A DNA stretch of 64,000 nt, from the NCBI RefSeq assembly GCF_003334815.1, contig NZ_QOWO01000010.1. One strand, 5' to 3'. The notes under the pieces were generated by a model that was given only the letters and a program-made list of their open reading frames with translations, ran no database searches and was not told where the DNA came from. Source of the DNA: Escherichia coli. GTDB lineage: Bacteria > Pseudomonadota > Gammaproteobacteria > Enterobacterales > Enterobacteriaceae. The stretch's first letter is position 1. Each line of letters starts with the position of its first letter. Below are positions 43,288-45,491 of this stretch, in pieces. The position numbers and the translations under genes were made by a program.

Positions 43288-43335
43288 AATCGCTTCCTCT
43301 TATCAGATATGAGAGGAGTATACGCAAGATTAGGT

Positions 43336-43575
43336 TCAAAAGAGTGATGGTTGCTCCGGTTCGTCTGATGACGCTGGCTTATTTGCGCGTAATTTGCGCA
43401 TTAATCGCTGCCGACAAAGGCGCAGCACCTCTTGTTTTTCGCCATCGCTCATTTTATTCCAGTTAAAACGCTCATCACGACTACGAAAACAGCCGCGACA
43501 AAACCCGCGTTCGTCAGACTGGCAAATTCCCCGGCACGGGCTCTGGACGGGAAAGAACTCTAATTGCTCCGCCAC
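43336..43575 (-). CDS. ydhL: DUF1289 cysteine-rich small protein YdhL
   Basis: 79 aa if initiated at GTG (MAEQLEFFPVQSPCRGICQ...); track ORF is extended to an upstream ATG. Confidence 0.7.
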   Translation of the reverse strand: MAEQLEFFPVQSPCRGICQSDERGFCRGCFRSRDERFNWNKMSDGEKQEVLRLCRQRLMRKLRANKPASSDEPEQPSLF

Positions 43576-43647
43576 TTCGCCCTCCTCAGATAAGATTATT
43601 ACCATTATTGAAGCTGTTAATGTCCAAAGTAGCAACTTTGCTTGCAC

Positions 43648-43663
43648 TAGACCGACTGGTCTA
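43648..43663. promoter_or_regulatory. Inverted repeat TAGACC-N4-GGTCTA, candidate NemR operator
   Basis: TAGACCGACTGGTCTA ends 15 bp upstream of the nemR start; TetR-type palindrome. Confidence 0.7.
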
Positions 43664-43677
43664 CTACACTCCAACGC

Positions 43678-44277
43678 ATGAACAAACACACCGAACATGA
43701 TACTCGCGAACATCTCCTGGCGACGGGCGAGCAACTTTGCCTGCAACGTGGATTCACCGGGATGGGGCTAAGCGAATTACTAAAAACCGCTGAAGTGCCG
43801 AAAGGGTCCTTCTATCACTACTTTCGCTCTAAAGAAGCGTTTGGCGTTGCCATGCTTGAGCGTCATTACGCCGCATATCACCAGCGACTGACTGAGTTGC
43901 TGCAATCCGGCGAAGGTAACTACCGCGACCGCATACTGGCTTATTACCAGCAAACACTGAACCAGTTTTGCCAACATGGAACCATCAGTGGTTGCCTGAC
44001 AGTAAAACTCTCTGCCGAAGTGTGCGATCTGTCAGAAGATATGCGCAGCGCGATGGATAAAGGTGCTCGCGGCGTGATCGCCCTGCTCTCTCAGGCGCTG
44101 GAAAATGGCCGTGAGAACCATTGTTTAACCTTTTGTGGCGAACCGCTGCAACAGGCACAAGTGCTTTACGCACTGTGGCTTGGCGCGAATCTGCAGGCCA
44201 AAATTTCGCGCAGTTTCGAGCCACTGGAAAACGCGCTGGCCCATGTAAAAAACATTATTGCGACGCCTGCCGTTTAG
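43678..44277 (+). CDS. nemR: TetR-family electrophile-responsive repressor NemR
   Basis: 199 aa with TetR HTH; inverted repeat operator 15 bp upstream. Confidence 0.92.
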   Translation: MNKHTEHDTREHLLATGEQLCLQRGFTGMGLSELLKTAEVPKGSFYHYFRSKEAFGVAMLERHYAAYHQRLTELLQSGEGNYRDRILAYYQQTLNQFCQHGTISGCLTVKLSAEVCDLSEDMRSAMDKGARGVIALLSQALENGRENHCLTFCGEPLQQAQVLYALWLGANLQAKISRSFEPLENALAHVKNIIATPAV

Positions 44278-44313
44278 CAGGCATTTTTTATCACCAGACG
44301 ACCGGGAGCCTTT

Positions 44314-45411
44314 ATGTCATCTGAAAAACTGTATTCCCCACTGAAAGTGGGCGCGATCACGGCGGCAAACCGTATTTTTATGGCACCGCTGACGCGTCTG
44401 CGCAGTATTGAACCGGGTGACATTCCTACCCCGTTGATGGCGGAATACTATCGCCAACGTGCCAGTGCCGGTTTGATTATTAGTGAAGCCACGCAAATTT
44501 CTGCCCAGGCAAAAGGATATGCAGGTGCGCCTGGCATCCATAGTCCGGAGCAAATTGCCGCATGGAAAAAAATCACCGCTGGCGTTCATGCTGAAAATGG
44601 TCATATGGCCGTGCAGCTGTGGCACACCGGACGCATTTCTCACGCCAGCCTGCAACCTGGCGGTCAGGCACCGGTAGCGCCTTCAGCACTTAGCGCGGGA
44701 ACACGTACTTCTCTGCGCGATGAAAATGGTCAGGCGATCCGTGTTGAAACATCCATGCCGCGTGCGCTTGAACTGGAAGAGATTCCAGGTATCGTCAATG
44801 ATTTCCGTCAGGCCATTGCTAACGCGCGTGAAGCCGGTTTTGATCTGGTAGAGCTCCACTCTGCTCACGGTTATTTGCTGCATCAGTTCCTTTCTCCTTC
44901 TTCAAACCATCGTACCGATCAGTACGGCGGCAGCGTGGAAAATCGCGCACGTTTGGTACTGGAAGTGGTCGATGCCGGGATTGAAGAATGGGGTGCCGAT
45001 CGCATTGGCATTCGCGTTTCACCAATCGGTACTTTCCAGAACACAGATAACGGCCCGAATGAAGAAGCCGATGCACTGTATCTGATTGAACAACTGGGTA
45101 AACGCGGCATTGCTTATCTGCATATGTCAGAACCAGATTGGGCGGGGGGTGAACCGTATACTGATGCGTTCCGCGAAAAAGTACGCGCCCGTTTCCACGG
45201 TCCGATTATCGGCGCAGGTGCATACACAGTAGAAAAAGCTGAAACGCTGATCGGCAAAGGGTTAATTGATGCGGTGGCATTTGGTCGTGACTGGATTGCG
45301 AACCCGGATCTGGTCGCCCGCTTGCAGCGCAAAGCTGAGCTTAACCCACAGCGTGCCGAAAGTTTCTACGGTGGCGGCGCGGAAGGCTATACCGATTACC
45401 CGACGTTGTAA
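44314..45411 (+). CDS. nemA: N-ethylmaleimide reductase (Old Yellow Enzyme family)
   Basis: 365 aa OYE-family FMN oxidoreductase. Confidence 0.94.
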
Positions 45412-45491
45412 TCCAACATTGCGAGCGGCGTAAAGCCGCCGCTATACTAAAACAACATTTTGAATCTGTTAGCCATTTTGAGGATAAAAAG

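Follow-up and report, generated by a model that had tools for sequence, protein, structure and literature searches.

NemR (formerly YdhM) is a TetR-family repressor of the Escherichia coli nemRA operon that is inactivated by N-ethylmaleimide and methylglyoxal and that, once modified, binds the nemRA promoter more weakly. Deletion of nemR raises the expression of nemA 15-fold and, via read-through, that of gloA 5-fold, and genomic SELEX returned nemR as the single NemR target, giving a regulon made up of nemRA-gloA. Published work already describes NemR autorepression through an inverted repeat in the nemR promoter, and promoter binding by purified NemR, lost on cysteine modification, has been reported in primary work relayed by later papers. 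The NemR box of nemRA-gloA (Umezawa et al. 2008; Gray et al. 2013; Lee et al. 2013) is thus the described system closest to the site analysed here, with which it shares the locus, the gene, and the inverted repeat. Its behaviour as described is also the same, in that NemR represses its own gene until cysteine-modifying electrophiles or HOCl lift the repression and transcription reads through into gloA, and there is no difference in kind between the two.

Other members of the TetR family offer partial parallels. TetR on tetO (Tn10, Tn1721) likewise involves a TetR-family dimer bound to a short palindrome in its own promoter, with an inducer that lowers DNA affinity, and the tetR mRNA of Tn1721 is a classic leaderless mRNA, a property that we predict for nemR as well. 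On the other hand, tetO serves a pair of overlapping promoters that diverge towards tetR and tetA, whereas the targets of the operator described below all lie downstream in one direction and the divergent ydhL has a separate promoter; induction of TetR is a matter of reversible ligand binding, whereas that of NemR is a matter of covalent cysteine chemistry. AltR of Pantoea ananatis, a NemR homologue that responds through a key cysteine, represses itself via a perfect inverted repeat overlapping the -10 element, but its operator has another sequence and geometry (CAATCTAC-N6-GTAGATTG) and it answers thiosulfinates, not NEM or diamide (PMC13178969). Finally, the RutR box TTGACCAnnTGGTCAA (PMC2475637) is, like the operator upstream of nemR, 16 bp long, in the same register and built on a shared GACC/GGTC core, but the two differ at positions 2, 7, and 15 (11/14 matches), and it is the NemR form that is kept across genera at nemR. 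Here we examine this operator, hereafter O1, in a 64-kb stretch of E. coli DNA (the window) and in related genomes.

Results

The palindrome upstream of nemR and its conservation

The gene order in the window is sodC, ydhF, and ydhL on the minus strand, then nemR, nemA, gloA, rnt, and lhr on the plus strand. The nemR open reading frame (43678..44277, plus strand) encodes a TetR-family repressor of 199 amino acids, an assignment based on its RefSeq name, on the match of its product to PDB 4YZE, "HTH-type transcriptional repressor NemR" (E = 3.9e-127), and on the Pfam domains TetR_N and TetR_C_13; Cys21, Cys106, and Cys116, the cysteines discussed in the NemR literature, are all present in the translation. 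It is followed by the co-transcribed target nemA (44314..45411, plus strand; open reading frame and RefSeq name), encoding N-ethylmaleimide reductase, and by gloA (45492..45899, plus strand), encoding glyoxalase I, which is reached by read-through and also has a published forward start site of its own (1725824, window 45455).

Upstream of nemR, at 43648-43663, lies the 16-bp perfect 6-N4-6 inverted repeat TAGACCGACTGGTCTA (TAGACC-GACT-GGTCTA), to which no strand is assigned and which also serves as a RutR site. An earlier, sequence-only reading of this DNA had reported the repeat immediately upstream of nemR, where it indeed is; the site itself stands, and the 15 bp given there as its distance to nemR counts to the A of the ATG at 43678, the actual gap being 14 bases. 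O1 is the sole match to TAGACC-N4-GGTCTA in the 64 kb, a search for further NemR boxes at ≤2 mismatches having found none. At least one match at 2 mismatches arose, however, in 50 of 100 shuffled windows, and perfect 6-N4-6 inverted repeats occur in the window about once per 2 kb (32 observed versus ~16 expected). The 10 extra NemR-box matches that appear at 3 mismatches were discarded as chance-level (11 observed in total versus 12.1 expected). As a bare pattern, O1 is therefore unremarkable, and its significance lies in its position and conservation.

Conservation was assessed on 80 loci encoding NemR relatives, taken from one-genome-per-species contigs, of which the 37 that showed ≥51% identity and had nemA as the next gene downstream were treated as orthologues, making 38 sequences with the window. 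All 37 orthologous loci carry a match of 10-12 out of 12 to TAGACC-N4-GGTCTA within 75 nt before the nemR ATG (12/12 in 27 loci, 11/12 in 7, and 10/12 in 3), and the end of O1 lies 13-15 nt from the ATG in nearly all of them. Arm positions 3, 4, 5, 12, 13, and 14 are invariant in 38/38, with 87-97% conservation at the other positions of the arms; the four bases at the centre are variable, and the DNA only a few bases from O1 is unconstrained. The locus thus combines an exact repeat before nemR, a TetR-family NemR encoded next door, and conservation of the repeat while its flanks diverge. Within the species, every one of the 5426 complete E. coli genomes contains the 1.1 kb around O1 (≥95% identity), 5041 of 5425 genomes share exactly the same 50 bp around O1, and three variant Escherichia sequences that were inspected carry changes only outside the palindrome. 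The operator centre, GACT in E. coli, reads GATC in six loci of several genera (L005, L009, L024, L031, L052, and L067), which makes the site a perfect 16-bp palindrome with a Dam methylation site.

The intergenic region holds further repeats. A second perfect 6-N4-6 repeat, CAAAGTAGCAACTTTG, is found at 43625-43640, 23 bp from O1, in Escherichia only, and a 16-nt direct repeat (AGCAACTTTGCTTGCA / AGCAACTTTGCCTGCA) is present at 43631-43646, where it spans both -35 regions and overlaps the palindrome CAAAGTAGCAACTTTG, and at 43730-43745, within nemR codons 18-23. A direct repeat as good as this pair was obtained in 1 of 1000 dinucleotide shuffles.

The abundance of perfect 6-N4-6 repeats in the window, together with the presence of CAAAGTAGCAACTTTG so close by, could be taken to mean that O1 is a chance repeat or that it acts as an RNA hairpin instead of a protein-binding DNA site. 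We regard this as barely conceivable, given that the sequence of O1, beyond its mere pairing, is kept in 38/38 orthologous regions while the neighbouring CAAAGT repeat is confined to Escherichia, that resistance mutations map onto O1 (see below), and that the palindrome would be part of neither mRNA with a predicted nemR start at ~43677 and a ydhL start at 43601 pointing away from it. An RNA element at O1 was also rejected as a candidate on the grounds that the region has no Rfam family match and that the site falls outside both mRNAs.

The recorded literature fits the reading of O1 as the NemR operator. The sequence TAGACCnnnnGGTCTA was reportedly named the NemR box by Umezawa et al. in 2008, and indirect statements elsewhere suggest that the footprinted NemR box is this exact 16-mer. 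That O1, in the nemRA(-gloA) promoter, is the site of a NemR autorepression relieved by electrophiles, as had been proposed from the sequence, is right and already published, and genetics and conservation agree with it.

The predicted nemR promoter and a putative leaderless mRNA

When the 38 sequences are anchored on the palindrome, a TTG at -6 to -4 before it and, after it, a TA at +2/+3 and a T at +7 (TAnnnT) are invariant in 38/38. TTG and TAnnnT are the most informative bases of the sigma-70 -35 and -10 hexamers, respectively. We infer a nemR promoter with TTGCAC as its -35 element (43642..43647, plus strand), abutting the operator, and TACACT as its -10 element (43665..43670, plus strand), the spacer being exactly 17 bp, that is, the 16-bp operator plus 1 nt. 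The predicted hexamers match the consensus at 3/6 and 4/6 positions, respectively, and would make a weak promoter, which explains why a sigma-70 promoter scan of 43300-44400 reported nothing at the scan threshold.

Downstream of the putative -10 element, 32/38 loci have the ATG 6-8 nt after the invariant TAnnnT, and the bases in between are unconstrained (32-45% identity) and devoid of a Shine-Dalgarno motif across the 38 sequences. RNA polymerase normally starts ~7 nt after the -10 element, and the nemR mRNA is therefore predicted to begin within a base or two of the AUG. A -10 hexamer 6-9 nt before the start codon combined with the lack of a Shine-Dalgarno sequence is the arrangement expected of a leaderless gene, and we predict that the nemR mRNA is leaderless, with its start at ~43677. 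Start-site mapping by dRNA-seq of unstressed cells contains no nemR forward start site (Romero 2014; PMC4681348 Table S2), and a survey of this kind can be expected to miss the nemR promoter while it is repressed. One dRNA-seq survey named five leaderless E. coli mRNAs (dicA, pgpA, racR, rhlB, and ymfK), a list that does not include nemR, and a literature search for a leaderless nemR/ydhM transcript returned nothing relevant.

Resistance mutations in the operator

Independent genetic evidence comes from the experimental evolution of E. coli with methylglyoxal-rich honeys, in which all Manuka- and Medihoney-adapted isolates were altered in or beside nemR. Seven isolates carry changes in the nemR coding sequence, and the other four (two Manuka and two Medihoney) share one G->A substitution reported as "intergenic (-84/-19) ydhL/nemR". 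Both distances lead to the same base in the window (43575+84 = 43678-19 = 43659, plus strand), and this base is a G, namely O1 position 12, the second G of GGTCTA in the right arm, which is a G in 38/38 sequences (orthologues plus window). The substitution falls inside the promoter spacer and improves neither hexamer. A mutation in O1 can thus stand in place of nemR coding mutations and gives the same resistance phenotype, in line with the increased Manuka honey resistance reported for a nemR deletion. The simplest reading is that G->A at 43659 causes a loss of NemR binding, the measured phenotype being resistance. A nemR-promoter SNP from the Kim/Kustu work, published as position 1,684,163 of a different coordinate system, acts as a suppressor of a rutE deletion and was predicted to abolish repression.

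Binding of RutR to the same site

Work on RutR, which the sequence-only reading did not mention, has already picked out the exact O1 16-mer: Shimada et al. (2008; PMC2475637, Table 1) give it as a ChIP-chip target with an 11/14 match to the consensus TTGACCAnnTGGTCAA, centred at -22.5 from ydhM. The ydhM site was also among 16 high-affinity targets that were clearly shifted by purified RutR in EMSA, although an effect of RutR on transcript level was seen for ves only and not for ydhM (PMC2475637). Our own search of the window with the RutR consensus gives O1 3 mismatches out of 14, with the critical positions 4 (A) and 13 (T) intact.

These data raise the possibility that O1 is mainly a RutR operator, or one shared by NemR and RutR, linking nemRA to pyrimidine catabolism. 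In addition to occupancy in vivo, the shift in vitro, and the consensus match including positions 4 and 13, such a role would be in keeping with the ability of NemA to replace RutE, in which case RutR released by uracil would provide a second input, with the placement of nemR in the RutR regulon by RegulonDB, as quoted in a later paper, and with the suppression of a rutE deletion by mutations in nemR and in the nemR promoter. We nevertheless consider it unlikely. The transcript effect was detected for ves alone; positions 2 and 15, which distinguish the two boxes, are held at A (36/38) and T (37/38) in place of the RutR-preferred T and A; the operator moves with nemR over many genera at a fixed distance; and NemR and RutR are not closely related, no RutR chain occurring among the 15 PDB matches to NemR with E <= 1e-5. 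Moreover, a NemR box of such geometry would score ~11/14 against the RutR consensus anyway, so that cross-binding by RutR may be a by-product. Because only ves responded, the NemR-form positions are conserved, and RutR is absent from the structural relatives of NemR, RutR binding at O1 is real but probably secondary. A link between RutR and nemR is still plausible, since mutations in nemR and the nemR promoter suppress the loss of RutE.

The divergent gene ydhL has a separate promoter

The sequence-only reading had also proposed that the divergent neighbour ydhL, separated from nemR by a 103-bp spacer, might be co-regulated from the same operator. The ydhL open reading frame (43336..43575, minus strand; RefSeq name) encodes a DUF1289 protein and starts with a GTG at 43575 preceded by GAGGAGG, so that the intergenic region measures 102 bp, not 103, and the proposed co-regulation is not borne out by what follows.

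Published coordinates were transferred to the window with a fixed offset (window = U00096.2 - 1680369), which was verified by the position of the RutR site, the distances of the honey mutation, and the centre of a sigma-54 motif. Alignment of 20 ydhL-bearing sequences (19 loci plus the window; the Cedecea locus L021, with its gap of 879 bp, was left out) revealed a conserved module on the ydhL side consisting of TTGC, 17 bp, CTTCAAT, a variable stretch, GGAGG, and GTG. In the window, this promoter module lies at 43607..43635 on the minus strand, with TTGCTA as the -35 element (43635-43630), a 17-bp spacer, and TTCAAT as the -10 element (43612-43607), and its elements keep a fixed mutual spacing in the 20 sequences. 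The published reverse-strand start site RVS_(II)-1723970 (PMC4681348 Table S2) maps to 43601 (minus strand), 6 nt after TTCAAT; it is of class II, that is, 5'-triphosphate-enriched without a clear coverage step. With ydhL starting at 43601, O1 occupies -47 to -62 and therefore falls outside the ydhL core promoter.

Might O1 nonetheless work in both directions, with NemR also repressing ydhL, and perhaps ydhF, and ydhL taking part in the electrophile response? Several circumstantial observations would suit such an arrangement: the -35 hexamers of ydhL and nemR are just 6 bp apart in E. coli, one of the two ChIP-chip sets obtained with methylglyoxal has a region of raised RNA polymerase occupancy that extends over 60% of ydhL, overexpressed ydhL is, like gloA, a hit for H2O2 and HOCl resistance, and ydhL is followed by ydhF, an aldo-keto reductase gene. 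The idea is quite improbable, though, because ydhL has its own conserved TTGC-17-TTCAAT module and start site and O1 lies beyond its core promoter. The linker between the -35 elements of ydhL and nemR varies from 6 to >80 nt between genera, and the intergenic lengths (99-142, 178, 222, and 879 bp) contrast with the fixed 13-15 nt between operator and nemR. ydhL is present upstream of nemR in 21/38 of the genomes that keep the operator, and the other 17 lack it at this place. The ydhL start was detected in an unstressed LB culture that lacked any nemR start signal, the region found in the other methylglyoxal ChIP-chip set excludes ydhL (the resolution of the arrays being a few hundred bp), and SELEX identified nemR as the single target, with a regulon limited to nemRA-gloA. 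O1 therefore differs from a bidirectional operator of the tetR/tetA type in that it does not overlap the ydhL core promoter and that neither the gene pairing nor the spacing is conserved; ydhL is outside the demonstrated targets of O1, which we take to be an operator for nemR, nemA, and gloA.

Some features of the ydhL side deserve mention in their own right. The -10 region CTTCAAT has a T for the usual A at its second position, kept in 19/20 aligned sequences, and this conservation may point to another factor or sigma for ydhL. The possibility that the conserved TTGC of the ydhL module belongs to a sigma-54 promoter was discarded, as there is no GG at -24. A published sigma-54 binding site, CTGGTTCAGTGTTTGCT, is located inside nemR in antisense orientation (43949-43965, minus strand), 363 bp upstream of ydhL, and, if activated, would drive transcription across O1 towards ydhL. 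Published class I start sites are found at 43309-43311 (minus strand), 22-24 nt upstream of ydhF, and at 45455 (plus strand), 37 nt upstream of gloA; each of these genes therefore has its own promoter in unstressed cells. Escherichia albertii (L002, ~1279-1400) carries a ~120-bp insertion between the ydhL -10 region and the Shine-Dalgarno sequence, bringing its intergenic region to 222 bp. Insertion sequences occur at ydhL in E. coli (Z1323CEC0011, L082 56-753; hit H2): IS1A lies just downstream of ydhL in one strain, and in another ydhL is split into two DUF1289 fragments flanking IS1.

A second operator before nemA in relatives of E. coli

In relatives of E. coli, a 15-bp site, TAGACGACYGGTCTA, follows the nemR stop codon, a terminator-like hairpin, and a T-run. 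This second, NemR-type operator, O2, ends in enterics 10-24 nt (mostly 10-18) short of the nemA ATG, with a conserved AGGAG shortly after it. Among the relatives (L003-L080) it is located at ~2104-2241 (1302 in L025), before nemA or the next gene, and it was found in 32/35 scorable orthologous loci; the three without it come from another E. coli strain and from two species of Yersinia. O2 is also present in most of the distant homologues (Vibrio, Photobacterium, Burkholderia, Vogesella, Lysobacter, and a Rhodobacteraceae genome), and the distant homologues have this 15-bp site in front of the regulator gene as well. The site has an asymmetric centre, GACYG, and with very few exceptions faces the same way with respect to the gene. 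Compared with this family motif, the enterobacterial upstream operator corresponds to the 15-bp motif plus one extra C, reading TAGAC[C]GACTGGTCTA in E. coli.

E. coli retains only a relic of O2, CAGACGACCGG, at 44295..44305 (plus strand). Alignment with eight genera, which have TAGACGACCGGTCTA at this place, shows that the right arm has been removed in E. coli by a 10-bp deletion, and the same alignment shows that the E. coli T-run is shorter by an 8-bp deletion. The terminator-like hairpin (GCCTGC-CGTTTA-GCAGGC with the T-run; 44265..44292, plus strand) overlaps the nemR stop codon and is conserved in relatives; it thus sits within nemRA, a unit that the literature treats as one operon. For O2 in enterics, a sigma-70 promoter of its own was considered and rejected, there being no conserved TAnnnT and the conserved AGGAG having to be within the transcript; O2 may act as a roadblock or as part of a promoter. 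Judging from these alignments, the loss of O2 would fit both the single-target status of NemR and the dependence of nemA on read-through in E. coli.

Discussion

Our analyses leave little doubt that NemR acts on O1 to shut off its own operon and that electrophiles lift this repression. In the mechanism that we propose, a dimer of NemR, a member of the TetR family, would set a helix-turn-helix onto each of the two TAGACC half-sites, whose centres lie 10 bp, or one helical turn, apart. O1 would fill 16 of the 17 bp between TTGCAC and TACACT, and it is this occupation of nearly the whole spacer that suggests that bound NemR shuts out RNA polymerase by steric exclusion. Modification of NemR cysteines by N-ethylmaleimide, methylglyoxal, glyoxal, quinones, or HOCl would lower the affinity of the repressor for DNA and leave the promoter free, transcription would then proceed through nemR and nemA and by read-through into gloA, and fresh, unmodified NemR would close the loop. 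RutR, itself of the TetR family, can also bind this 16-mer, although the only transcript that responded to it in the published study was that of ves.

The several parts of this account differ in standing. The site and its conservation, its position relative to conserved promoter bases, and the mapping of the honey mutation are direct observations, and binding and derepression have been published, whereas the exact -35 and -10 hexamers, steric exclusion, and the leaderless transcript are what we propose from them. The finding of O1 as the NemR operator is correct but restates known biology of a well-annotated E. coli locus, and confirming it adds little because it was already established. Anything new would lie in the predicted leaderless nemR mRNA and in the loss of a second operator.

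Seen across the family, O1 could be the last survivor of a two-operator design. Under this tentative scenario, which we hold with less than even confidence, a leaderless nemR would be expressed across Enterobacterales from a promoter whose spacer is the operator, and O2 (TAGACGACYGGTCTA), present in most relatives from Citrobacter to Burkholderia and Vibrio, would have been lost in E. coli by the 10-bp deletion, leaving nemA to read-through; the 16-bp register of O1, one base longer than the 15-bp motif of the family, would be what allows cross-binding by RutR.

From a physiological point of view, O1 is the switch of a well-studied defence against methylglyoxal, quinones, N-ethylmaleimide, and bleach, and point mutations within it repeatedly lead to resistance, medical honey being one example. 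The lost O2 could explain the apparent single-target status of NemR in E. coli and the reliance of nemA on read-through past the terminator-like hairpin. If the prediction for nemR is true, a stress-induced chromosomal gene would join the few in E. coli that give rise to leaderless mRNAs, of which one survey named five.
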